From contig RFSW01000001.1 of NCBI GenBank assembly GCA_009923755.1, positions 453 to 64,452 on the forward strand: DNA of 64,000 nucleotides, in the 5' to 3' direction. This stretch comes from Betaproteobacteria bacterium (GTDB lineage: Bacteria > Pseudomonadota > Gammaproteobacteria > Burkholderiales > UBA3065). The position numbers were made by a program, and so were the translations under genes. Below the pieces are notes generated by a model. The model did not search any database, had not been told where the DNA came from, and was given only the letters and a program-made list of their open reading frames with translations. Of the stretch, positions 46,444 through 59,936 are shown piece by piece; within the stretch, counting starts at the first letter, position 1, and every line of letters starts with the position of its first letter.

Positions 46444-49400
46444 TCAGGCTGCGACGCCAATGTAATAGGCGTTGTCGGAATCGGTGACCGCTGGCATCCC
46501 GACCACGCTCACCGCAGCGATATTCTGCTGCTGTCCGATGAGCAGGGTGGTGTCGGTGAACACCAGTTCCTGTGAAGCGCCTGGGGCCAGACTGCCGAAG
46601 TCGTAGTCGGTCCCTGCAGCAGCACCATTGAGGTCGTAGCTGCTGTCGCTAAGTACCACGTCGCCGAGTGTGACGGTGCCAGTATTGGTCACTACGAAGC
46701 GGAACTGCGGTGCGCTGGTCGCCTCCGGACCCGTGGGCGAGTTGGCGTCGTCCCAAGTTACCCCGCCGTCCACCGATACGTACTTCACCAGATTCACGCG
46801 TGGGTCGTAGACCACGGTCGCGTACTCGCTGTCAGCCGCCGGTGTGGTCTCGTTGCTGTCTGCGGTCGAGTCGCTCTCTACCCGGCCGTCGCCGCCGCCG
46901 TTGCTGTCGAGGTCGGCCTGCGTCAGCGTGTAGGTGTCGTCATACACACCCGTTTCACCGGGGGCCAAGGTGACCCCCGAGATGGCGACGCCAGTAAGTG
47001 GGTCTGTGACCTCGACGCCTGTGAGGGTGACGTTGCCCAGATTGGCCAACGTGTAGCGGAAGTTCAGGACGTCGCCCTCGGCATCGGCGAGCGCGTTGCC
47101 GTTGCCGCCGGTGACACCGGTGAAGGCCGCATCGTACGACATGACCTTGGTCAGCAGCAGGGGTACCTGGTCGCTGTCGGTCACCGGATTGGCCTCGTCG
47201 CTGGTCGCGTTGGCGGTGTTGTCGATGTAGCCGTCGCCGCCACCGTTGTTGTCGAGGTCGGATTGCTGCAGCGTGTAGCTGGTCAGGTAGACGTCGGCCG
47301 CGCCCGGAGCCAGGGTGAGGTCGTTGAGGGCGAATCCCGTCAGGGGTTCGACCAGATCGACATTGGTCAGCGTCACGTTGCCCGGATTGGCAAGGATGAT
47401 GCGGTAGTTGATCTGGTCGCCCACCGCATCGGCGACACCGTTGCCGTTGCCACCGGTGACATCAAGGAACAGCTTGCTGAGGAACATCACCGGGCTCACA
47501 AACAACTGCACCGTCTCGGTATCGAAGGTCGGGCCGGTCTCGTCGGCGACAGCCACAGCGTCGTTATCGAGAGTGCCGTCGCCGCCGCCGTTGGTGTCGA
47601 GGTCAGACTGTTGCAGCGTGTAGCTGGTCAGGTATTCGTAACTCTCACCTGGCAGCAGAGTCGGCAAGGTGTCGCTGAATGCGGTGAGGCTGCTGCTGGT
47701 GGTGACGTTGTGCAGGGTCGTCGTGCCAACGTTACTGATGACGATGCGGTAGTTGAGAATGTCGCCCGCTGCATCGGCCAACACATTGCCATTGCCGCCG
47801 GTCAGGTTGACGAAGGATTTGATGATCTGCAGGCCGGTGGTCCGCAACAACTGTACCGTTTCGGCATCGCTGATGGCATCGGTCTGGTCGCTGTCGGCCG
47901 TCGCGGTGTTCTCGATGGCCCCATCGCCGCCGTTGGTGTCAAGGTCGGCCTGGGTGAGCACGTAACTCGATCCGAAGGTCTGAAACTCGCCCGGGGCCAA
48001 GGTCAACCCGGTCTGGTTGAGGCCGGTGAGCGGATCGATCACTGATACGCCGGTCAGCGTCACATTGCCGACATTCGATACGGTCACGTTGTAATTGAGC
48101 GAGTCACCGGCGAAATCTGCGAGCAGATTGCCGTTGCCGCCACTCACACCGTCGAGCACCTTGTTTAGGCCGCACGGTCAGGTCGACCCGCTCGGAGTCG
48201 TCGTGCGGGTCCGTCTCGTTGCTGTCGGCGGTCGCGGTGTTCTCGATGTGGCCGTCGCCGCCACCGTTGGTGTCGAGGTCGGCCTGGGTCAGCGTGTAAG
48301 TGCTGGCGAACCACTGCGAGGTGCCCGGGGCGATGGTGATGCCGCTGAGGTTCTGGCCGGTCAGCGGATCGACCACGGTGACGCCGGTGAGCGTGATGTT
48401 GCCGGTGTTGGTGACGAAGACGCGGTAGTTGAGCACGTCGCCCGCTGCGTCGGCGGCGCCGTTGCCATTGCCGCCGGTGACGCCATCGAAAACTTTGTCG
48501 ACGCTCATGTCCGGTGCATAGACCAGAGGCACTTCTGCTGAGGCGCTGACCGGGTCGGTCTGGTCGGAATCGGCGGTTGCGGTGTTGTCAAGGTCGCCAT
48601 CGCCACCGCCCTTGTCATCAAGGTCGGATTGCTTGAGCACGTAACTGCTGTCGAAGCTCTGCGATTCGCCGGCAGCAAGGGTGATGCCACTCAGGTTCTG
48701 ACCGGTGAGGGGGTCAACGATCGTCACGTTGGTCAGCGACTGGCCGTCGATGTTGGTCACGGTGACTCGGTAGTGGATGATGTCGCCCGCGGCGTCGGCG
48801 ATGGTGTTGCCGTTGCCATCGGTCACCTCAAGGAAAGTCTTGGTGATCTTGAGCGCAGGGATGAAGTCGAGTGGCGCCGTTGCCGAGGCGCTGACCGGGT
48901 CGGTCTCGTTGCTGTCGGTGGTTGCGGTGTTGTCGATGTCGCCATCGCCGCCGCCGTTGTTGTCGAGGTCGGCTTGGGTCAGGGTGTAGGTTGAGCCGTA
49001 ACTCTGGCTTGCTCCCGGCGCCAAGGTCACGCCGGTGACGTTCTGGCCGGTCAGCGGGTCGGTCACGGTGACCCCGGTCAGGGTCACATTGCCATTGTTG
49101 GTGATGGTGACGGTGTAGTGCAGCACCTCGCCCGGCAGGTCGATCTTGTCGTTCTGGTTGCCGCCAGTGACGCTGTCGTAGGACTTGGCGATGGCGAGCA
49201 CCGGCAGGTAAGCCAACGGTACAGTCTCGGAGTCGCTCGAGGGGTCGGTCTCGTTGCTATCGACGGTTGCGGTGTTGTCGACATCGCCGTCGCCGCCACC
49301 CTTGGTGTCGAGGTCGGCCTGGGTGAGCGTGTAGCTCGAGGTGAAGGTCTGCGTCTCACCGACCGCCAGGGTGATGCCACTCAAGTTTTGGCCGGTGAGC

Positions 49401-49909
49401 GGGTCGACGACGGTGATGCCGGTCAGAGTGATGTTGCCGGTGTTGCTGACGACCACGGCGTAGTTGAGGACGTCGCCGGCTGCGTCGGCGATGCCGTTGC
49501 CGTTGCCGCCGGTCACCTTATCGAACACCTTGTCGACGGTGATCGCAGGGGTGTAAGCCAAGGGTGCCGTAGCGGAGTCGCTGGTGGGCGCGGTCTGGTC
49601 GGAGTCGGCCGTGGCCGTATTATCGATGTCGTTGTCGCCACCGCCGCGGTTGTCCAGATCTGCTTGGGTCACCGTGTAACTGCTGGTGTAGGTCGCGCTT
49701 CCGCCTACCAGCAAGGTGACGCCACTCACGTTCTGGCCGGTCAGCGGGTCGACGACCGACACACCGGTCAGATCTTGGTTGCCGGTGTTGGTCACCACCA
49801 CGCTGTACTTGACGATGTCACCGGCCTGATCGGCGATGCCGTCGCTGTCGAGCGTCACGCCATCGGCCTGGTAGACCCCATCGACCGCCTTGTCGATGGC
49901 CAGACCCGG
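46444..49909 (-). repeat. About 10 tandem coding repeats of ~115-120 aa (~350 bp) inside the adhesin gene
   Basis: The recurrent unit is ...DKVFDxVTGGNGNxxADAAGDVLNYxVxVTNTGNxTLTGVTVxDPLTGQNxSGxTLAPGxSQxxxSxYTLTQADLDxxGGGDGDxDNTATADSxxTDPxS.... Nine copies are clear and one terminal copy is divergent. Confidence 0.75.
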
Positions 49910-50716
49910 GATGAGCGGGATGATGGCCTTGGGTGAGAGTTGCAGCGAGGTGGCACCGCTGCCGCCGATGTCGACCGTGGTCTGCAAGGAGCCGCCGGTC
50001 CACGATGAGGCGCCATTGGTCGGCCCTGCACCCTGATCCGGCACATCGCCATCCTTGGCGATCTGCAGGCCGTAGTAGATCTCGGCACCGCCCTTGGTGG
50101 TGGTCGGGCCGGTGTAGACAAAGGTCACCGTGACGTGACCTTGCTTGGTGTTGGAACTGGCATAGGTGACCGCGCTGACATTGGTGATGTCGGCGTTGAT
50201 GCTCATGAAGGCACCGGCGGTACCGCCACCGTTGCTGAAGGTGCCGTCGGTCGAGGGTGTGTTGCCAGTCGGCCAGCTGGACGGCACGCGGCTGTCCTGC
50301 ACGCTGGTCAGGCCGACGAAGCCACCGGAGTTGGTATTGACCTGATAGTGGTCGTAGGTGATGTTGAAGCTGTAGCTTTGCCCTTGCACCAAGGGGGTTT
50401 TGTTGCTCGCGCTGTAGACGAAGACATGCGGAATGACCTCGCCTTCTTTGTAGTCCGACTTGTTGTCCGAGAGGATGTTGTTGTTCCACTCGGCACTCGA
50501 ACCCGATGCGGCATCGCCGTAGGCCCAGTGTTGGTAGACCTTGCTGACGACGCCGACCGTCTGGGTGGGGGCAAGCAGGGCGCTTTTCTTGTTCGACCCT
50601 TCCGTCAGGGTCATACCGGTCAGGTAGGGATTGACCAGACCCGATTGCACTGCCTCTCCATGACCCGTGTCATGGCCGAGCGGGTTGGCTGACATCGGCT
50701 TTTTCTTGGCTGTCAT
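46444..50716 (-). pseudogene. Giant repeat surface protein/adhesin (DUF11 / conserved-repeat-domain type), about 1420 aa if the frame is restored; currently two ORFs
   Basis: Track ORFs 48104-50716 (870 aa) and 46444-48159 (571 aa) are contiguous parts of one repeat protein. ORF1 ends ...SERVDLTVRPK then goes out of frame. ORF2 resumes (N)KVLDGVSGGNGN..., matching every other repeat junction. The frame change lies within 48160-48177 (ccgtgcggcctaaacaag). Confidence 0.75.
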
Positions 50717-50934
50717 GCTGTGTTCTCCTGATTGCCCAAAGGGGTCCCGGGCCCCGATCGAGGCCGGCTCTACGGGTGACGCTGCGGTGCAGCATTCACG
50801 TCGGACTCAGGATTGCAGCGGCCAGCGCGCCGGTATGCCGGACGTTGTCGCGAAGTGGGTGGGATATGGCGTTGCGCGTGTAGGACCTGCCGCTAGCGCC
50901 GTAGGACAAGGCTTACAGCGGAGAGCTTGCGGAC

Positions 50935-51561
50935 ATGGCGGACATCGTTCTCGCCGACGAACAGCCGGTGGTACGCAGCGGTCTGCGAGCGGTGTTGGCG
51001 GTCGCGCGGGATTTTCGCATCACCGCGGAGGTCGGGCATTCCGCCGCGCTATTTGCCGAACTCGCCCGTGTCTCTTGCGACCTGCTGCTGGTGGAGCCGG
51101 CGCTGCCTGATCTGCCAGTGGTCGAGCTGATCGGCCGGGTGCGTCGCCTGCCGGCTGCACCGCGTGTGCTGGCGTTTGGTGTGAAGCCGGAGGAAGACTT
51201 CGCTCTGCCGCTGATCGAGCTCGGTGCCGCGGGCTATCTTCACAAGTGCAGCCCGCCGGAGCAGATCCTCGTTGCTGTGCGTACCGTGCTCGGGGGCGAC
51301 ACCTATCTGCCGCCAGGGGTGGCGCGCAGCCTGCTGGCCGGCGGTCACGGCCAGGCTGAACTGCCCCACCTGGCCTTGTCGCGGCGGGAGATGGGCGTGC
51401 TGCTGATGCTGGGGGCCGGGCGTCCGCTCAAGCGCATCGCCGACGAACTCAATCTCAGCATCAAGACGGTGAGCACCTACCGAAGCCGGGTCCTGCAGAA
51501 ACTCGGTCTGGCCTCGAACGCCGACCTCACGCGCTACGTCATAGAGCGCGGCCTGGGCTAG
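50935..51561 (+). CDS. LuxR/NarL-family response regulator with atypical (Asp-to-Glu) receiver
   Basis: 208 aa. The C-terminal HTH is LSRREMGVLLMLGAGRPLKRIADELNLSIKTVSTYRSRVLQKLGL. The receiver-like N-terminus reads IVLADEQP (normally DD) and DLLLVEPALPD (Glu at the phospho-acceptor position). Lys is conserved (GYLHK). Confidence 0.85.
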   Translation: MADIVLADEQPVVRSGLRAVLAVARDFRITAEVGHSAALFAELARVSCDLLLVEPALPDLPVVELIGRVRRLPAAPRVLAFGVKPEEDFALPLIELGAAGYLHKCSPPEQILVAVRTVLGGDTYLPPGVARSLLAGGHGQAELPHLALSRREMGVLLMLGAGRPLKRIADELNLSIKTVSTYRSRVLQKLGLASNADLTRYVIERGLG

Positions 51562-52844
51562 ACCAGCAACTGACCGGCAGGCGGGTGGGAGAGAAAGCCC
51601 GCCGGGCTGGCACTGGCGCCATAGGCCCCCGATTGGCCGATTGCCAGGATGTCGCCGGGCCCGACGTCGGCCGGCAGCATCACCTCGCGCGCGAGCACGT
51701 CGAGCGGCGTGCACAAGGGCCCGCAGACGGTAAAGGTGGTGTCGCCGCGCGCGGCCAGGTCGCGTGCCAGCCAGACCGGATAGTCGCGCCGGATCACCTG
51801 ACCGAAGTTGCCGGATGCCGCGAGGTGCTGGTGCATCCCGCCGTCACAGACGAGGAAGTCGCGGCCGCGCGAACGCTTGCGATCGATGACCTGGGTGAGG
51901 AACACCCCAGCTTCACCAACCAGATAGCGCCCAAGTTCCAGCACGAGCACGGTCTCTGGAAAGTGCGCCGCATGGTCGCGGGCGATGTCAGCCAGTGCTG
52001 CGCGCACCGGCGCCGTGTCGAGCGGCTGTTCGCCGGCAAAGTAGGGGATGCCGAAGCCGCCACCGAGGTTGAACACGCGCAGCGGGGTGGCTTGGGCCAC
52101 CAGATGGGCGTCTGCGACGGGCGCCCAAGCCGCGAGTTCGGTACAGAGGGCGTGGCTGCGTCGCAGTGCCTCGGCCACCTGCCCGCCATCGAGGTTTTGC
52201 GAGCCGGCGTAGATGTGAAAGCCAGCAAAGGTCAGGTTCGCCGGCCAGGCGGCGAGTACCGCCGGGACTTTCTCTGCGTCGATGCCGAACACCTGTGCGC
52301 CACCGCCCATGCGCATGCCCGCGCGCCGCAGCTCGAAGTCAGGGTTGATGCGCAGGGCCGCCCGTGCAGATTGCCCGGCTGTGCGCGCCAGCGCTGCCAG
52401 GCGCGCCAGTTCGCCGGCTGATTCGACATGGATCACCGCCCCGGCATCGATCGCCGCTGCCAACTCGGCGTCGCGCTTGCCGGGGCCGGCAAAGCCGAGG
52501 TGTGCGCCGCGGTGGCCGGCGTCGAGCGCGAGCGCCAGTTCGCCGCCCGAGGCGATGTCGAAGCCGTCGACCTGTGTCGCCAAGAGGCGCAGCAACTCGG
52601 GCAGTGGATTGGCCTTGATGGCGTAATGCAGGCGTATGCCTTCGGGCAGTAGCGTGCGCACCGAGGCGACGCGTGTTCGTACCGCTGCAGAGTCCACCAC
52701 GTAGAGCGGCGTGCCATGGCGGGCGGCCAACGACACGGCAGTCTGCCCGCCGAGCAGCAGGGCACCGGTGGCGTCGGTCGAGAACGGCGGCGCCGCGTGC
52801 AATGGCATGCCGTGCGTCGGCGCTGCGGGCTCAGTCATTGCCAT
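51558..52844 (-). CDS. Fold-type III PLP-dependent decarboxylase (DapDC/ODC family)
   Basis: 428 aa. Contains TPLYVVD, the PLP-Lys block HYAIKANP, GGGFGIPY and CGPLCTPLD. Its start overlaps the upstream ligase gene by 14 nt. Confidence 0.8.
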   Translation of the reverse strand: MAMTEPAAPTHGMPLHAAPPFSTDATGALLLGGQTAVSLAARHGTPLYVVDSAAVRTRVASVRTLLPEGIRLHYAIKANPLPELLRLLATQVDGFDIASGGELALALDAGHRGAHLGFAGPGKRDAELAAAIDAGAVIHVESAGELARLAALARTAGQSARAALRINPDFELRRAGMRMGGGAQVFGIDAEKVPAVLAAWPANLTFAGFHIYAGSQNLDGGQVAEALRRSHALCTELAAWAPVADAHLVAQATPLRVFNLGGGFGIPYFAGEQPLDTAPVRAALADIARDHAAHFPETVLVLELGRYLVGEAGVFLTQVIDRKRSRGRDFLVCDGGMHQHLAASGNFGQVIRRDYPVWLARDLAARGDTTFTVCGPLCTPLDVLAREVMLPADVGPGDILAIGQSGAYGASASPAGFLSHPPAGQLLV

Positions 52845-54426
52845 CGCTGGCGTGGTCGGTCGCCGTGGTGGCGAGGCGCGTGAGGAGTTGTTGGCGGATC
52901 AGCACGCGGTCGAACTTACCATTGGCGGTTCTTGGCAGGGCGCCCGGCCAGACTTCGATGTGCCGCGGGTGCATCCAGGTCGGCAGCCCACTGCGCAGTG
53001 CGTTAGCCAGGCCGCTGATGTCGTCGCTCGCCACTGCCAGTGTGATCACCTCTCCGAGCCACCGGTCTGGCAAGCCGGTGGCCACGCACTCCGGCCAACC
53101 GGCTGCCGCCGCGACCGATTCGACCTCAGTCGGACTGACCCGGTAGCCCGAGGTCTTGATCTGCCCGTCCTTGCGGCCAATGAACCACAGATAGCCTTCG
53201 TCGTCGCATCGCAGGGTGTCGCCGGACCATACCGCCGGCTCGCCGTCGGGCCCGGGCCGAAAGCGTTCGGCGCTGCGTGCCGGGTCGTTCCAGTAGCCAC
53301 GCGCAACCAGCGGACCTTGTTGCACCAGTTCGCCGGCTTCGCCCGAGGCACAGAAGCTGCCGTCCTGTCGCAGCAGGTGCAGGCGGGTGCCGCCGGGCAA
53401 GGCGACGCCCACCGATTCGGGTTTCCGCTCGAACTCATGGGGTGGCAGGGCGCTCGCCCGGAACGCCTCGGTCAGGCCATACAGCGCGTGCGGCGCGGCA
53501 TGCGGCCAGACGGCCTGCAGCCATTGCCAGTTTGCAGCCGGCAGCTGCCCGCCGGTGTTGGCGAAATAGCGCAAAGATGCGGAACCCGGTGCGCCGGCCA
53601 GATCGGCGCGGTGCGCGGCTTCGATGGCCTGCTGCAATTGCAGATACAAGGGTGGCACGGCGAGGATGCCGGTGATCGCGTAGCGGTCGAGCGCGACCAG
53701 CAGATCGGCCGGGAACAGGTGGTCGACCAGCGCCACCGATGCCCCGGCAGCAAAGGCGGTGGTCAGCTGCGAAAAGCCGGCATCGAAGGACAGCGGCAGC
53801 GCAGCCAGCAAGCGATCGTCGGGGCGATGGCCGAGGCAGGCGTTCATCGCTGCTGCGCCGGCCAGCAGGTTGGCATGCGTCACCATCACCCCCTTGGGCG
53901 CGCCGCTGCTGCCCGAGGTGTAGAACAAGATGGCCAACTCTTGGCTATCGCGTCGAATCGGCGGTGGGCATCCGGCAAGGCTGTGCACCTCGCGCTGCCA
54001 TGCGGCGTCGTCCACGTCTACGCCACGCCAGGGTCGGGCGTGGTCGGCGGCCGTCAGCGCCTGCAGGCGTCCGTAGTCGCTGAGCAGCAGGGCCGCCTGC
54101 GCGTCGGCCAAGCTGGCCAGCGCTTGCGATGCGCGTACCGCCGGGTTGAGTGGCAGCGCGACATGGCCGGCGCGCATCGCGGCGAAAAGGGCCACCACAG
54201 TGTCGACGCGCTTGTCGAGCCACACGCCGATGCGCGACCCGCGTAGCGGACAGGCGTCGGCCAGCCAGGCAGCCACCTGATCGACCCTGCGGTCGAGTTC
54301 GCCGTAGGTCAGATGCGAGCCGTCTCGCCAGAGGGCCGGCGCCTCCGGCCAGCGCCGCGCGGCGGCGCTCAGCAGGTCGGCAGCGGTCGCCATCGTGGGC
54401 GTCGCGCTGTGCGCATCAGCCATCAT
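52831..54426 (-). CDS. AMP-forming acyl-CoA/acyl-ACP ligase (adenylate-forming enzyme)
   Basis: From ATG 54426, ~531 aa. Has AMP-binding motif I LFYTSGSSGAPKGV, YGLTE, GDTLRCDDEGYLWFIGRKDGQIKTSGYRVSPTEVE and the terminal Lys motif PRTANGKFDR. Confidence 0.8.
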   Translation of the reverse strand: MMADAHSATPTMATAADLLSAAARRWPEAPALWRDGSHLTYGELDRRVDQVAAWLADACPLRGSRIGVWLDKRVDTVVALFAAMRAGHVALPLNPAVRASQALASLADAQAALLLSDYGRLQALTAADHARPWRGVDVDDAAWQREVHSLAGCPPPIRRDSQELAILFYTSGSSGAPKGVMVTHANLLAGAAAMNACLGHRPDDRLLAALPLSFDAGFSQLTTAFAAGASVALVDHLFPADLLVALDRYAITGILAVPPLYLQLQQAIEAAHRADLAGAPGSASLRYFANTGGQLPAANWQWLQAVWPHAAPHALYGLTEAFRASALPPHEFERKPESVGVALPGGTRLHLLRQDGSFCASGEAGELVQQGPLVARGYWNDPARSAERFRPGPDGEPAVWSGDTLRCDDEGYLWFIGRKDGQIKTSGYRVSPTEVESVAAAAGWPECVATGLPDRWLGEVITLAVASDDISGLANALRSGLPTWMHPRHIEVWPGALPRTANGKFDRVLIRQQLLTRLATTATDHASDGND

Positions 54427-54587
54427 GCGTTGCAGGCCACGTGGTCGGGGCTGCTGCCCATGCCGGCCACGACTCCCTATAATGGCGCCCCCGGATGCCG
54501 TCGGGCCGCGGCGACTCCCGCCGGTGTCCGGCCTTCGAACCTCCGGGCCGGCATCGGCCGTCGTCGGCAACGGGACTCTTCGCGAAC

Positions 54588-54845
54588 ATGGCAGTAGACA
54601 TGCAGACTGAACTGGCACGCATCCTCGACGACGTTCTCGCACTCGAGGGCCGCGGCGTTGCTTTGCGGGCCGAATCGCGTTTGATGGGCGCCATCCCCGA
54701 ACTCGACTCGATGGCCGTGTTGTCGGTCTTGGAGGCGATCCGCGACCGCCTCCACGTGCGCATCGCCGACGACGAGATCGACGGCCGCATGTTCAGCACG
54801 CTCGGCGCCCTCACCGAGTTCGTCAGCGCCCGCGCCAGCGTCTAG
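54588..54845 (+). CDS. Acyl carrier protein-like small protein
   Basis: About 85 aa from ATG 54588 (or ATG 54600). IPELDSMAVLSVLEAI matches the phosphopantetheine attachment pattern (LDS). It is divergent from the ligase/decarboxylase operon across a 161-nt gap. Confidence 0.65.
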   Translation: MAVDMQTELARILDDVLALEGRGVALRAESRLMGAIPELDSMAVLSVLEAIRDRLHVRIADDEIDGRMFSTLGALTEFVSARASV

Positions 54846-55228
54846 CGTCCGCCAGCGCTCCGTTCGCCGCGTTGCGGCGCCGGCGTGTCGGCGGGCACCG
54901 CCTCGTCGACCAGATCGACCACGGTGCCGTGGATCTCGACGTCGAACCAGAGCCAGAAGTTAGCCAGCGAACGCTCCTTGGGCCACTGCGAGGCATCGTC
55001 GACCCAGCTGCCGAGTTCCGCTTCGAACAACTCGACGCCGATCTCGTCGATGAACGCCACGGCGTCTTCCGGTTCTTCGAATTCAGGGATCAGCAACGCA
55101 GTGCAGTCGAGCCGCAACTGCTCGAGTGTAAGGTCGACCTCGTGGCCGGGTGTTTTGCGCAGCCAGTCGAGGAAGGGCTGCTTGGGCTTGATCACGGCGA
55201 GGTTGCGGTCGATCACGTACATCGGCAT
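54842..55228 (-). CDS. Hypothetical acidic cytoplasmic protein
   Basis: The C-terminal 128 codons of track ORF 54842-57079 read as a plausible protein (MPMYVIDRNLAVIKPKQPFLDWL...WPKERSLANFWLWFDVEIHGTVVDL). GGAG sits directly before ATG 55228, so ATG 55222 may be the real start. The rest of the 745-aa ORF is antisense to ovoA and is rejected. Confidence 0.5.
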   Translation of the reverse strand: MPMYVIDRNLAVIKPKQPFLDWLRKTPGHEVDLTLEQLRLDCTALLIPEFEEPEDAVAFIDEIGVELFEAELGSWVDDASQWPKERSLANFWLWFDVEIHGTVVDLVDEAVPADTPAPQRGERSAGGR

Positions 55229-55486
55229 CTCCAGAGAGCCCCGCAGGATGGGGTATGGAAGGATTATCGCATCGTCCGCCATCGCTCCGCGGCAGCCGTC
55301 GGCGCGGCCACGCGCAGGCGTCGTCACCGCTTGGATCGGAACCGACGCGCGGCGGCGCATTCCAAGCGTGTGCTCGGCGCAGAACGGCCACCGTGTTGGA
55401 TAGATTCCACTGGTATGGTGGCGGCGCGATCCGGTGGCGAGAGGCCGCCGACAACACACCATCATAAGATTCAGCGAGAACTGCCC

Positions 55487-57628
55487 ATGCGCAACGACAG
55501 TCGCCTTCTCTTTCCTCGCACGCCCGATCTGCGCAGCAGCGATGCCGACAGTTTTCGCGCCACGCTCGGCGCCTATTTCCATAGCACGTTCAGCGCTTAT
55601 GAGTCGCTGTTCGAGGCGCTGGTGGACGAGGACAGCTATCGCATCAAGCCGATCAGCCTGCGCCACCCGTTGATCTTCTACTACGGGCATACCGCGACTT
55701 TCTTCACCAACAAGCTGCTTCTCGCCGGCCTGATCAGCGAGCGTGTCAACCCGCGTTTTGAGTCGATGTTCGCGGTGGGGGTCGACGAGATGAGCTGGGA
55801 CGACCTCAACGAGGCGCACTACGACTGGCCGACCGCAGCCGAGGTGCGTGCCTACCGCGACAGCGTCCGGGCCATGGTCGACCGCATCATCCGCGAAGCG
55901 CCGTTGCAGATGCCGGTGGACTGGGACAATCCGTGGTGGGCCCTGATCATGGGCGTCGAACACGAGCGCATCCACCTCGAGACGTCCACCGTGCTGATCC
56001 GTCAGCACGCCCTCGGGCGGGTGCGACCGGTGGCCGGTTGGGCGCCGGATCGCAGCGGCCTGATGGCAGCCCCGACGCCTGCCGATGCGCCGGTCAACCG
56101 CCTGGTGGCGATCCCGGCCGGCGGCGTGCGATCGGGTAAGGCCATCGATGACGCGCTCTACGGCTGGGACAACGAGTACGGCCGACGCGAGGTGGCATTG
56201 CCGGCTTTCGAGGCCGCCAGCATGCTGGTCAGCAATGCCGAGTACCTGGCCTTCGTCGAAGCCGGCGGCTATGCCGATGCGCAGTGGTGGGACGAGGAGG
56301 GGGAGGGCTGGCGCCGTTATTCCCGGGCCACCGCGCCGACTTTCTGGGTCCGCGATGGTGCTGCCTGGAAGCTGCGCCTGATGACCGAGGAGGTCGCCAT
56401 GCCCTGGAGCTGGCCGGTCGAGGTCAACTGCCTCGAGGCCCGGGCCTTCTGCCGCTGGAAGAGCGCGCAGACCGGCCGCACCCACCGCCTCCCGACTGAG
56501 GACGAGTGGTACCGCCTGTACGACGTCGCCGGCATCGCCGAGGTGCCGCACGACACGCCCGCCGCCGCCAATCTGCACCTCGACCACGGCGCCTCGAGCT
56601 GCCCGGTCGATCGCCACGCACAGGGCGACTTCTTCGACGTGGTCGGCAATGTGTGGCAATGGACCGAGACGCCGATCTATCCCTTCGAGGGCTTCCGCGT
56701 CCACGACATCTACGACGACTTCTCCACACCCACCTTCGACGGCCGTCATAACCTGATGAAGGGCGGTTCGTGGGCTTCTTGCGGCAATGAGAGCATCCGC
56801 GCGTCGCGCTATGCCTTCCGCCGTCACTTCTTCCAACATGCGGGGTTGCGCTACGTGGTCACCGATACGCCGGCGGTCGCGCCGAACGTCTATTACGAAT
56901 CCGACCGGCAACTCTCCGAGTACGCCGAGTTCCACTACGGCGATGAGTGCTTCGGCGTCCCGAATTTCCCCAAGGCGCTGGCCGAGATCGCCATCGCCGC
57001 GATGGGTAATCGCACGGCCGACAAGGCGCTCGATCTGGGCTGTGCCACCGGACGCGCGAGTTTTGAGCTGGCGCGCCATTTCGGCCAGGTCACCGGCGTC
57101 GATTTCTCGGCGCGCTTCATCAACGCTGGGGTGCAGCTGCGTGACACCGGCGAGCTACGCTACCAGCGGGTCGAGGAGGGCGAGCTGGTGAGTTACCAGA
57201 CGCGCACTCTGGCGGCGCTCGACCTGGTCGAGGTCGCTGGCCGCGTCGATTTCATGCAGGGCGACGCCTGCAACCTCAAGACCGTGCTCACCGGCTACGA
57301 CCTGATCCTCGCCGCCAACCTCATCGATCGGCTCTACGACCCGCGTGCCTTTCTCGACCGCGTGCACGAGCGGCTCAAAGTCGGTGGCATCCTCATACTG
57401 ACCTCGCCCTACACCTGGCTCGAGGAGCACACCGCGCGCGAGAACTGGCTCGGCGGCTTCAAGAAGGACGGCGAGAACTGGACCACGCTGGATGCGCTCA
57501 AGGCAGTGTTGGCGCCTCACTTCCGCCTGCTCGGTGAGCCGCTGGACGTACCCTTTGCCATCCGCGAGACGCGCCGCAAGCATCAGCACACGATCGCCGA
57601 GGCCAGCCTCTGGGAGCGCATCCGCTGA
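55487..57628 (+). CDS. ovoA: 5-histidylcysteine sulfoxide synthase / methyltransferase OvoA (ovothiol biosynthesis)
   Basis: 713 aa from ATG 55487. Has a DinB-like N-domain with the iron motif HERIHLE (H-x3-H-x-E), an FGE-sulfatase-type domain (GNVWQWTETP, GGSWAS) and a C-terminal SAM methyltransferase (LDLGCATGRASFELA). Confidence 0.85.
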   Translation: MRNDSRLLFPRTPDLRSSDADSFRATLGAYFHSTFSAYESLFEALVDEDSYRIKPISLRHPLIFYYGHTATFFTNKLLLAGLISERVNPRFESMFAVGVDEMSWDDLNEAHYDWPTAAEVRAYRDSVRAMVDRIIREAPLQMPVDWDNPWWALIMGVEHERIHLETSTVLIRQHALGRVRPVAGWAPDRSGLMAAPTPADAPVNRLVAIPAGGVRSGKAIDDALYGWDNEYGRREVALPAFEAASMLVSNAEYLAFVEAGGYADAQWWDEEGEGWRRYSRATAPTFWVRDGAAWKLRLMTEEVAMPWSWPVEVNCLEARAFCRWKSAQTGRTHRLPTEDEWYRLYDVAGIAEVPHDTPAAANLHLDHGASSCPVDRHAQGDFFDVVGNVWQWTETPIYPFEGFRVHDIYDDFSTPTFDGRHNLMKGGSWASCGNESIRASRYAFRRHFFQHAGLRYVVTDTPAVAPNVYYESDRQLSEYAEFHYGDECFGVPNFPKALAEIAIAAMGNRTADKALDLGCATGRASFELARHFGQVTGVDFSARFINAGVQLRDTGELRYQRVEEGELVSYQTRTLAALDLVEVAGRVDFMQGDACNLKTVLTGYDLILAANLIDRLYDPRAFLDRVHERLKVGGILILTSPYTWLEEHTARENWLGGFKKDGENWTTLDALKAVLAPHFRLLGEPLDVPFAIRETRRKHQHTIAEASLWERIR

Positions 57629-58815
57629 GTTTCGACTTTGATACGCCGATCGACCGCGGCGGCACGCACAGCGAGAAGTACGCGCTGCGCCGCGAGCTGT
57701 TCGGCACCGATGCGGTCGAGCCGTTGTGGGTGGCTGACATGGACTTCGCCGCGCCGCTGGTGGTGCAGGCTGCGCTTGCTGCTCGCGTGGCGCACCCCGT
57801 CTACGGCTACACGGTGATTCCCGACAGCGTGTCACAGGCGCTGGCCGGTTGGCTGCAGCGGCGGCATGCTTGGGCCGTGGAGCCGGCGAGCATCCATCTC
57901 GCGCCTGGCGTGGTGCCCACGCTTTACGCCGCGGTGGCAGCCTTCAGCCAGCCGGGGGAGGGCGTGATCGTTCAGCCGCCGGTCTACCCGCCCTTGTTCG
58001 ATGCCGTCACGCGTCAGGGCCGGACTGTGCTGGAGAACCCGCTGCGCGAGACGCCAGGCGGCTATGCCATGGATCTGGAGCACCTCGAGGCCCTGGCTGA
58101 GCGCGGTGCGCGCTTGCTGCTGCTGTGCAGCCCGCACAACCCGGTCGGGCGCGTCTGGCGCGAGGGCGAGTTGCGGGCTGTGCTCGACATCGCCCGCCGG
58201 CACGGGCTGGTCATCCTCAGCGACGAGATCCACGCTGACCTGGTCTATGCGCCACGCCACGGCGCCGCCACCGATGCACCGGTGCATGTCCCCTTGGGCG
58301 CCATCGCCAGCCCCGGCGATGCCGTGGTCACGGTGGTCGCGCCGAGCAAGACCTTCAATATACCGGGCCTCGGGCTGTCGGCGACCATCGCCTCGGGGGA
58401 TGGCGTTGCCCGCCGGCTGGCCGAGGCTTTCGCGCGTCTGCCGGTGAGCGTCGCCAACCCACTCGGGCTGGCGGCTTTTGAGGCGGCCTACCGTGAGGGC
58501 GATGCCTGGCTCGATGCCTGCCTTACGGTGCTGCGCAGCAACCGCGATCTGTTGAACACCGCCTTGGGCAGCGGCCCGGCCGCGCAGGTCTGCGGGCGGC
58601 CGCCTGAGTCGACCTACCTCGCCTGGCTCGATTGCCGGGGCACCGGCCTGGATGGCGCCAGCCTGATGCATGCGTGGGTCGAAGCCGGGCTGGGCTTATC
58701 AGCCGGCACGCGCTTCGGCACCGGTGGCAGCGGCTTTATGCGGCTCAATTTCGCCATCCCGCCGGCTCGCATGGCCGGTGTGCTCGAGCGCGTCGCCGCC
58801 GTCAGTCGCAGTTGA
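57625..58815 (+). CDS. PLP-dependent C-S lyase (MalY/PatB family; OvoB-like), probable CTG start
   Basis: Has the MalY-type N-terminus (L/M)SFDFDTPIDRGGTHSEKY...LWVADMDF and the PLP-Lys block APSKTFNIPGL. The frame is open from 57538, but the first canonical start is TTG 57724, inside the conserved block. CTG 57625 overlaps the ovoA stop (cgCTGAgt). Confidence 0.7.
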   Translation: MSFDFDTPIDRGGTHSEKYALRRELFGTDAVEPLWVADMDFAAPLVVQAALAARVAHPVYGYTVIPDSVSQALAGWLQRRHAWAVEPASIHLAPGVVPTLYAAVAAFSQPGEGVIVQPPVYPPLFDAVTRQGRTVLENPLRETPGGYAMDLEHLEALAERGARLLLLCSPHNPVGRVWREGELRAVLDIARRHGLVILSDEIHADLVYAPRHGAATDAPVHVPLGAIASPGDAVVTVVAPSKTFNIPGLGLSATIASGDGVARRLAEAFARLPVSVANPLGLAAFEAAYREGDAWLDACLTVLRSNRDLLNTALGSGPAAQVCGRPPESTYLAWLDCRGTGLDGASLMHAWVEAGLGLSAGTRFGTGGSGFMRLNFAIPPARMAGVLERVAAVSRS

Positions 58816-59782
58816 GGGCCAGTGCGGCCTGCAGCTCTGCCCGTAGCCTGTGGCGCAACGCGGGAGGATCCAGCAGTTCGACGCTACTGCCGTGTCGCAG
58901 CACTTCGCCAAGCAACTCTCGCGGGTCGGAGTAGGGCACCTCGAGCAGATAGCGGCCCTCGGCGTCAAAGCTGCCGCGCTGCTGTGAGTGCCAGTGTTCG
59001 GTCGCCACCCAACGCGCACGCTCGGCGCTGAAGCGCAGTCGTGCCCAGTTGACCTCCGCGCCGGAGAAGATGCCGTAGCCGGCACTGAAGAAGGCGTCGA
59101 GTGCGGCGTCGTTGCATTCTTCGGCGGTCTCGTCCAGCGCTTGCAGAGTACGGATGCCGTCCAGAGCAAAGCTGCGCAGTGCCTGCCGCAGATGACACCA
59201 GGCATCGAGGTACCAGTTGCCGCGGTAATGCACCAGGCGCTGTGGCGAGACGCTGCGTTCAGTGACGTCGTCACGCGCCCTTCCGTAGTAGTGGATGAGG
59301 AGGCGTCGCCTTTGCAGCAGCGCGAGGCCGATCGCCGGAAACAGGTGGTTGCTTGGTGGTCGTACGCCGGCCCGGGTGATGCGGATGCGCCGGCGCAACT
59401 CCGTCGATCCCACTTTGCCCTCGCCGAGAATGGTATCGATGCGCGCCACCAGCGGCCTGATGTGGGGCGTCAGAAGGTTGCTGTCAAGTTCCTCCAGCAG
59501 CTGGCTCATGGTCAACAGCGCAGCCACTTCGGCTTCGCTGAACCATAGCCCCGGCAGCGCATAGCGTGGTCCCGGGCCCGGTTTGCCGAAGCGGTAGCCG
59601 CCGAGTTCGCGGTCGTATTCGATGGGTGCGTTGAAGCGGTCACGCAGGTAAGCGAGGTCGCGCTTGAACGTCGCGCGGGAGACGCCGAGGGTCGCCAGCA
59701 TGTCCTTGAGCGGCACCACCCGTCGCTCGTGCAGGAGTTGGTCGATGCGGTGGAGTCGCTCGGCGTCGTGCATGCGCGGCAT
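58802..59782 (-). CDS. WYL-domain transcriptional regulator (HTH-WYL-WCX architecture)
   Basis: From ATG 59782, 326 aa. Has an N-terminal HTH (LKDMLATLGVSRATFKRDLAYLRDRF) and a WYL block (LVHYRGNWYLDAWCH...RSFALDGI). The 3' end overlaps the lyase gene by 14 nt, convergently. Confidence 0.8.
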   Translation of the reverse strand: MPRMHDAERLHRIDQLLHERRVVPLKDMLATLGVSRATFKRDLAYLRDRFNAPIEYDRELGGYRFGKPGPGPRYALPGLWFSEAEVAALLTMSQLLEELDSNLLTPHIRPLVARIDTILGEGKVGSTELRRRIRITRAGVRPPSNHLFPAIGLALLQRRRLLIHYYGRARDDVTERSVSPQRLVHYRGNWYLDAWCHLRQALRSFALDGIRTLQALDETAEECNDAALDAFFSAGYGIFSGAEVNWARLRFSAERARWVATEHWHSQQRGSFDAEGRYLLEVPYSDPRELLGEVLRHGSSVELLDPPALRHRLRAELQAALALNCD

Positions 59783-59936
59783 TGTCGAAACAAATCTTCG
59801 GCAGTTTATCAGCGGCTCGCGATATGAGCCTATGGCGTCCGAACATTTCGCGTAAAAAAGCCCGTGAGTTGAAGCAAAACCGAGGTCCACTCGTTTTCTA
59901 CAGGGCAGGTCAATCACTCTGCGACAGTCGATATAA

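Follow-up and report, generated by a model that had tools for sequence, protein, structure and literature searches.

An orphan carrier protein, ligase and decarboxylase trio in a freshwater betaproteobacterial lineage: a predicted omega-aminoacyl-ACP module

Introduction

What is made by three neighbouring genes for an acyl carrier protein (ACP), an adenylate-forming ligase and a pyridoxal phosphate (PLP)-dependent decarboxylase, when the polysaccharide genes that usually accompany their relatives are absent? The question is raised by a contig of a 'Betaproteobacteria bacterium' (RFSW01000001.1, GenBank assembly GCA_009923755.1), of which 64,000 nucleotides (positions 453 to 64,452 of the forward strand, hereafter the window) were analysed, and in which such a trio lies at 51,558 to 54,845. 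An earlier note on this DNA had described the trio and proposed that it belongs to protein families labelled 'exosortase A system-associated'. From the sequence comparisons given below, it is likely that the trio loads an acidic amino acid on its carrier protein and decarboxylates it there, i.e. that it is an omega-aminoacyl-S-ACP module.

Sets of ligase, ACP and PLP decarboxylase that load aspartate or glutamate through the side chain, and then remove the alpha-carboxyl group on the carrier, are known from the literature (PMC11350588, PMC11284099, PMC7183216, PMC7857480). The characterised sets are BtrJ/I/K, CtaD/E/F, FlvN/L/O and VinN/L/O, and BolO/C/N has been proposed as another. In the vicenistatin (VinO) and closthioamide (CtaF) pathways, the decarboxylase needs the thioester and is inactive on the free amino acid.

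Three intact genes

The genes of the trio, their control region and their neighbours are listed in Table 1. The frame of the ligase is open from 54642, and the ATG at 54426 is the only canonical in-frame start ahead of the conserved body of the protein; a recorded protein (P0121, 531 aa) is 100% identical to it over the full 531 aa. The ACP is an exact match to the NCBI protein NBU58215.1, named 'acyl carrier protein' and derived from a 'Betaproteobacteria bacterium' metagenome-assembled genome. An exact look-up of the 428-aa decarboxylase returned no record, and a 426-aa version of it (P0001) is 99% identical. The stop of the ligase and the start of the decarboxylase overlap by 14 nt (...AGCGATGGCAATGACTGA), with the ATG of the decarboxylase lying within the last codons of the ligase, an arrangement that suggests translational coupling of the two enzymes.

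Relatives were collected as contigs with proteins 55-80% identical to those of the trio (about ten metagenomic loci, namely L001-L004, L012-L014 and L021-L023, called the close loci below), and the three genes are intact throughout this range of identity. The GC content at third codon positions is 0.79-0.85 in the three genes (the window as a whole has about 67% GC), the family E-values are 1e-148, and the ratio of non-synonymous to synonymous substitution rates (dN/dS) against four relatives is 0.18-0.37; on these three grounds the genes are real and under selection, and not chance open reading frames (ORFs). The gene-level description in the earlier note is thus borne out: the three ORFs lie where it placed them (by the ORF check and by records P0121 and NBU58215.1), the 14-nt overlap is present in the sequence, and the ACP gene diverges from the ligase gene across a 161-nt spacer. 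The phosphopantetheine motif that it read in the ACP likewise holds, as ELDSM.

The decarboxylase resembles BtrK

The decarboxylase passes the cut-off of TIGR03099 ('pyridoxal-dependent decarboxylase, exosortase A system-associated'), with 492.7 bits against 478.45. Its best match in the PDB is BtrK, from the butirosin pathway, at 241 bits and about 37% identity, and the next-best entry other than BtrK scores 153, i.e. 88 bits less. The predicted PLP lysine is Lys77, in AIKAN, and aligns with that of BtrK. Further motifs are found as GGGFG (at 261), ELGRY (at 303) and GPLCTP (at 375), and the corresponding patterns GGGFG, E(S/L)GRYL and GPLCTP(E/L)D align with BtrK as well. The enzyme therefore combines the features of carrier-protein-dependent decarboxylases, namely fold-type III, a PLP lysine, nearest kinship to BtrK and not to diaminopimelate decarboxylase (DAPDC), and a gene grouped with those of an ATP-dependent ligase and an ACP. 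Its predicted substrate is an amino acid bound to a carrier protein, as for BtrK and VinO.

The earlier note had itself raised the possibility that this enzyme is the housekeeping LysA, with which it shares a common fold and on whose model (TIGR01048) it reaches 236.5 bits. The lysA model requires 297.9 bits, which are not reached, whereas the TIGR03099 cut-off is exceeded; the gene is always in an operon with the ligase; and the enzyme has CTPLD (CTPED in BtrK) at the position that in DAPDC is held by the motif CESGD. Housekeeping LysA is accordingly rejected, its probability being negligible.

In a neighbour-joining tree without bootstrap, the lineage of the window is a single branch and the sister of the other TIGR03099 members sampled, and BtrK falls outside these members together with a BtrK-like enzyme of Amycolatopsis. 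The TIGR03099 scores of the close relatives (474.6-512 bits) straddle the cut-off, and the canonical Alicycliphilus member (L005) scores 607.

The ligase keeps the substrate anchors of VinN

The ligase is best described by the NCBIfam family TIGR03098 ('acyl-CoA ligase (AMP-forming), exosortase A system-associated'), on which its 493.5 bits are below the cut-off of 592.35. Next comes the model of the amino-acid adenylation domain (TIGR01733, 238 bits), and models of fatty-acid and malonyl-CoA ligases (160-200 bits) and of DltA (about 130 bits) are weaker. As controls, the close relatives L001, L012, L013 and L014 score 515-585 bits on TIGR03098, all below the cut-off, compared with 733 for the canonical Alicycliphilus ligase (L005) and 702 for a ligase of Amycolatopsis. 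Since the relatives score 515-585 bits here and 475-512 on TIGR03099, it is the whole lineage that scores near the limit of both models. The assignment to the exosortase A-associated families that the earlier note had proposed therefore stands in part: the decarboxylase passes, and TIGR03098 is by far the best family for a ligase that does not reach its cut-off, so that the trio is inside these families or just outside them.

A PDB search with the full-length ligase returned adenylation domains of non-ribosomal peptide synthetases (NRPS) first and VinN next, and with the pocket region alone (motifs A4 to A5) VinN was the only match (E 1e-9). VinN uses Asp230 to recognise the alpha-amino group of beta-methylaspartate, and Ser299 together with Arg331 to recognise its alpha-carboxyl group (PMC7756342). 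These three residues align with Asp215, Thr291 and Arg323 of the window ligase; in the mapping, the residue numbers and chain indices of VinN differ by a constant 16, which puts the triad on D, S and R.

The ten positions of the specificity code were derived by motif and checked over 118 homologues (19 close and 99 more distant). In the window ligase the code reads DASAATLRAK, with Asp215, Thr291, Arg323 and Lys504 as pocket residues, and across the 118 ligases the pattern D-A-S-(A/C/G)-A-T-(M/L)-R-(S/A)-K is nearly invariant, also in proteins named 'exosortase A-associated'. The pocket peptides [SA]FDAGFSQ and YGLTEAFR were picked by a metagenome scan as the most conserved stretches of the ligase. 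A scan of a genome collection with the single ligase sequence and very specific peptides returned ligases of only 23-35% identity (L006-L011) and no close relative.

Predicted reaction

The third partner is a stand-alone ACP, which matches the solved carrier protein PDB 2LKI with an E-value of 4e-13. Its predicted phosphopantetheine attachment site is Ser41 (in PELDSMAV), and all of 51 carrier proteins that occur next to related ligases have the Asp-Ser pair.

Taken together with the pocket, this would give the following sequence of reactions. The ligase would adenylate the side-chain carboxyl group of an acidic amino acid, to judge from the conservation of the pocket, with Asp215 holding the free alpha-amino group and Thr291 and Arg323 the free alpha-carboxylate. 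It would then move the amino acid onto the phosphopantetheine arm at Ser41 of the ACP, where the decarboxylase (Lys77) would strip the alpha-carboxyl group from the tethered amino acid, by homology to BtrK and by analogy to VinO, FlvO and CtaF. Because the decarboxylase is kin to BtrK and the VinN triad is kept in the ligase, the product would be beta-alanyl-S-ACP if aspartate is loaded, and gamma-aminobutyryl-S-ACP if it is glutamate. The aminoacyl group would finally go to an acceptor, through an enzyme encoded elsewhere, or a general thioesterase would free the product.

L-aspartate appears the most likely substrate, since the triad aligns position for position with that of VinN. The main alternative is L-glutamate, because the nearest decarboxylase is BtrK and because five pocket residues are smaller than those of VinN.

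Several observations weigh against this interpretation. Ser299 of VinN is a threonine in the window ligase, and the five smaller residues (Ala216, Ser219, Ala256, Ala289 and Ala324) imply a larger pocket, such that the substrate is possibly not aspartate. The analogy is put together from two separate systems, given that BtrK partners an ATP-grasp ligase and not an adenylating enzyme. With 19.8 bits on the Pfam model PP-binding (PF00550), the ACP falls a little short of the gathering score (20.8). In this lineage the trio is adjoined by no transferase, condensation enzyme or thioesterase, which leaves the pathway without a visible exit. Lastly, the literature searched holds no biochemical data on members of TIGR03098 or TIGR03099.

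Nor does any paper in that literature tie TIGR03098/TIGR03099 to the logic of BtrK and VinN. The remark in the earlier note that the chemistry had never been worked out is thus true, in this literature, of the exosortase-linked family; it overlooks the Btr, Vin, Flv and Cta systems, and the proposed Bol system, as relatives or analogues.

The same note had offered two chemistries. In the second of these, the ligase would put a non-amino acid (a fatty or other carboxylic acid) on the ACP or on CoA, and the decarboxylase would separately make a free amine to be acylated. The database name 'acyl-CoA ligase', the 160-200 bits on the fatty-acid and malonyl-CoA ligase models and the preference of most of the decarboxylase superfamily for free substrates all fit such a scheme. 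They are set against (i) the retention of Asp215, the amino-group anchor of amino-acid-activating domains, together with the carboxylate clamp of VinN, (ii) the amino-acid adenylation domain as second-best family of the ligase, (iii) the lead of 88 bits that the carrier-protein-dependent BtrK has over the next-best PDB match of the decarboxylase and (iv) the lack of an N-acyltransferase gene adjacent to the trio. Separate acylation of an amine is therefore disfavoured and considered improbable, and the scheme of adenylation, loading and decarboxylation on the ACP is favoured by the pocket and by BtrK. For the small lipid that had also been suggested as a product, nothing was found that supports a lipid.

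The divergent control region

The spacer between the ACP and ligase genes holds a conserved element, in which CTATAATGG is invariant in 9/9 related loci aligned, and a -35-like GCCCAC block is conserved too. On the plus strand the order between 54455 and 54491 is TGCCCA, 17 nt, TATAAT and GGCGCCCC, and the element is likely the promoter of the ACP gene. A simple sigma-70 scan of the spacer made no call, because the -35 hexamer is weak. An Rfam search of positions 50500-56000 gave no match and no riboswitch.

The opposite strand of the conserved block reads TATAGGGAG, and in one close locus (L012) the block is placed immediately upstream of the GTG that is annotated as the ligase start. Two others, L023 (which has no gene call) and L013, resemble it there, and in these three loci the block may also give the ligase its ribosome-binding site.

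Neighbourhood in the window and in close relatives

The first 44 kb of the window hold housekeeping genes (HisZ, PurA, RNase R, Ugd, GalU, DnaB, PGM, SMC, LigA, RNase E, RecA, PGI, P-II, DHODH and FtsK). Family scans of the 64 kb found no exosortase, PEP-CTERM protein, polysaccharide glycosyltransferase, TIGR03100/TIGR03101 hydrolase or PrsK/R/T gene; they also found no second ligase of the VinM type, no acyltransferase of the VinK type and no polyketide synthase (PKS). The lack of exosortase, glycosyltransferase and PEP-CTERM genes beside the trio, as described in the earlier note, consequently extends over the whole window.

Table 1. The trio, its control region and the neighbouring genes (positions in the window)
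Feature	Position	Strand	Remarks
PLP decarboxylase, fold-type III, 428 aa	51558-52844	-	TIGR03099 above cut-off; BtrK best PDB match
Adenylate-forming ligase, stand-alone (NRPS A-domain type), 531 aa	52831-54426	-	TIGR03098 best family, below cut-off
Divergent control region, 161 nt	54427-54587		Element kept in 9 related loci
ACP, stand-alone, 85 aa	54588-54845	+	PDB 2LKI match; NBU58215.1 identical
Conserved spacer element CTCCCTATAATGGCGCCCC	54473-54491	+	Alignment of 9 related loci
TATAAT, perfect	54478-54483	+	Inside CTCCCTATAATGGCGCCCC
TGCCCA, -35-like	54455-54460	+	17 nt upstream of TATAAT
DUF11/DUF7507 repeat ORFs, 571 and 870 aa	46444-48159, 48104-50716	-	Overlapping, different frames
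NarL/LuxR-type response regulator	50935-51561	+	Stop overlaps decarboxylase stop
Conserved 126-aa gene	54842-55222	-	Convergent with ACP, stop codons overlapping
ovoA	55487-57628	+	TIGR04344 651 bits, TIGR04345 335 bits
PatB-family C-S lyase, expected ovoB	57610 or 57724 to 58815	+	TIGR04350 416 bits
WYL/WCX-domain regulator	58802-59917	-	Adjoins ovoB

The close loci share an order of PGI, P-II, 5'-nucleotidase, HDOD protein (absent in L012), 5-formyltetrahydrofolate cyclo-ligase, DHODH and FtsK, followed by the decarboxylase, the ligase, the ACP, a small ORF, ovoA and ovoB. The ligase is directly followed by the decarboxylase in all seven close loci in which this was assessed (7/7), and none of eight close loci has hydrolase 1 or 2, PrsK/R/T, XrtA-type glycosyltransferase, PEP-CTERM or polysaccharide genes.

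The window differs from L001 and L012-L014 by the response regulator and the repeat adhesin ORFs, which sit as extra genes between FtsK and the decarboxylase. The regulator is found only in the window and in L004 (82% identity), a contig that ends before the position of the adhesin, and the adhesin ORFs are found only in the window. The regulator and the adhesin are thus a local, lineage-specific insertion, and not the defining context; they are indeed present on the decarboxylase side, as flanks that the earlier note had described, and the genes on the ACP side (the 126-aa gene and ovoA/ovoB) had been missed. In the regulator, Glu54 replaces the phospho-acceptor aspartate (Asp59 in NarL) and may act as a phosphomimic. 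The two DUF11/DUF7507 ORFs may be parts of a single adhesin gene that is interrupted by a frameshift.

On the ACP side, the 126-aa gene belongs to a tiny family (33 clusters in 5.8 billion proteins) with a dN/dS of 0.10-0.21 and no Pfam or NCBIfam match. Its AlphaFold model is confident (pLDDT 84, alpha/beta) and has no fold match in the PDB (best E 0.5). As a candidate fourth component of the system it was rejected, because homologues of 45-60% identity lie in unrelated neighbourhoods without the trio (L015-L019). The homology of ovoB begins at 57610, where the window has CTG and L001 has a GTG start, and the first canonical start is the TTG at 57724; either the gene would use a non-canonical start, or its product would lack about 38 aa at the N-terminus.

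The neighbouring ovothiol genes might offer an acceptor for the predicted product, in that the aminoacyl group could be joined to 5-thiohistidine or ovothiol to give a new thiol conjugate. The pair ovoA-ovoB is beside the trio in 8/9 informative close loci including the window, with ligase identities down to 60%. All the linked loci are in one synteny block, from PGI to FtsK, where adjacency can be inherited and not selected; the trio and ovoAB are separate transcription units with a convergent gene between them, and no condensing enzyme is present. In L013 ovoAB is cleanly absent, although the trio and the small ORF are there and the WYL regulator directly abuts the latter, and thus ovoAB behaves as a two-gene presence/absence cassette. 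Furthermore, ovoA occurs in 0/42 of the more distant trio loci. The adjacency is probably inherited synteny only, and a biochemical link to ovothiol is quite improbable.

The wider family

At least 576 relatives of the ligase were obtained from the metagenome scan, and 77 metagenomic loci with ligases of 39-48% identity served as a distant sample. In 56 of the 58 distant loci with enough sequence, the ligase is directly followed by the decarboxylase. An ACP was detected in 18 of the 27 long loci, in 14 of which both hydrolases are encoded as well, and eight long loci have homologues of PrsK/R/T. Other neighbours include the XrtA/PEP-CTERM glycosyltransferase TIGR03013, an asparagine-synthase-type amidotransferase, hydrolase 2 (TIGR03101), flippases, sugar dehydrogenases, a family 2 glycosyltransferase and a polysaccharide deacetylase. 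The family is therefore overwhelmingly a feature of polysaccharide loci, with exceptions, and the statement in the earlier note that these families travel with an ACP in PEP-CTERM/exopolysaccharide loci agrees with these counts.

A cluster of another kind was met in Amycolatopsis tolypomycina (L020:1-21533). Here a ligase with 702 bits on TIGR03098 and its own ACP are part of a natural-product cluster, which also encodes an ATP-grasp enzyme, a BtrK-like decarboxylase, a peptidyl carrier protein, ketoacyl-ACP synthase III enzymes, acyl-CoA dehydrogenases, a PKS ketosynthase and a thioesterase. As this ligase passes TIGR03098, the name 'exosortase A' is being applied in a Gram-positive organism, where an exosortase A system is not expected.

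Against this background, the trio of the window might be regarded as a decaying remnant of an exosortase/exopolysaccharide locus, with its partners lost and its function gone. As such decay would predict, neither hydrolases nor PrsK/R/T regulators nor polysaccharide genes are present, and the ligase and the decarboxylase score at or under the family cut-offs. It is nevertheless very improbable, given that the three genes are intact at 55-80% identity with a dN/dS of 0.18-0.37, that the catalytic and pocket residues are invariant and the promoter-like element is conserved, and that the lineage forms its own sister branch and not a scatter of degenerate copies. What is unusual here is that one freshwater betaproteobacterial lineage maintains, by purifying selection, an orphan trio with neither hydrolases nor polysaccharide genes. 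Since the trio persists under such selection without these genes, the cassette is modular, and the names of TIGR03098 and TIGR03099 should not be taken as a sign of an exosortase context.

Comparison with known systems

With the exosortase A (XrtA/EpsH, PEP-CTERM) trio, that of the window shares the three proteins, the operon of ligase and then decarboxylase, the divergent ACP, the pocket code and the Asp-Ser pair of the ACP. Unlike it, the lineage of the window lacks hydrolases 1 and 2, PrsK/R/T, PEP-CTERM and polysaccharide genes nearby; in addition, its ligase is under and its decarboxylase at the family cut-off, in keeping with a sister branch.

The butirosin system BtrI/BtrJ/BtrK of Bacillus circulans provides the nearest solved relative, BtrK, whose substrate is tethered to a carrier protein (of 87 aa), and which has been deposited as 'L-glutamyl-[BtrI acyl-carrier protein] decarboxylase'. 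Downstream genes of the btr cluster encode a monooxygenase, a transferase and an enzyme that removes the gamma-glutamyl group, and these are absent beside the window trio. A further difference is that BtrJ is an ATP-grasp enzyme (PMC7183216), while the window ligase is an AMP-forming adenylating enzyme.

The macrolactam starter-unit system VinN/VinL/VinO (with FlvN/L/O and the proposed BolO/C/N) likewise consists of a stand-alone A-domain ligase, a stand-alone ACP and a PLP decarboxylase. The recognition triad of VinN is kept in the window ligase, with Ser299 as threonine, and the logic predicted for the trio agrees with that of VinN, namely side-chain loading of the aspartate type followed by decarboxylation on the carrier. 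In contrast to the VinN system, the window has no VinM, VinK, PKS or NRPS, the pocket residues outside the triad are smaller, and the trio lies in a chromosomal housekeeping context of a Gram-negative bacterium.

DltA/DltC can be compared by analogy only: a small dedicated carrier protein is charged by an adenylating enzyme with an amino acid destined for a cell-surface polymer. The Dlt system has no decarboxylase, and its transfer proteins DltB and DltD have no counterpart in the window. The two alpha/beta hydrolases in exopolysaccharide loci that come next to the trio in its canonical relatives suggest an aminoacylation of polysaccharides or other surface components, loosely resembling the D-alanylation by DltA/DltC.

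A more far-reaching proposal would be that the family is a surface-polymer aminoacylation system, from which the cassette of the window has been detached so that it feeds beta-alanyl- or gamma-aminobutyryl-ACP into something new. This is regarded as a long shot, and so are the options that it would open, namely an ovothiol conjugate resembling carnosine or anserine, or a thiotemplated release of beta-alanine or gamma-aminobutyrate.

Implications

The chemistry predicted for the trio is already proven in antibiotic pathways. The context variant is new, the link to BtrK and VinN is a prediction, and no new kind of system is described. For the window itself the result is modest, a predicted aminoacyl-ACP module. 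Beyond the window, the link to BtrK and VinN could be useful, as it gives two widespread families a directly testable chemistry, and this chemistry would bear on the decoration of exopolysaccharides in bacteria that form flocs and biofilms.

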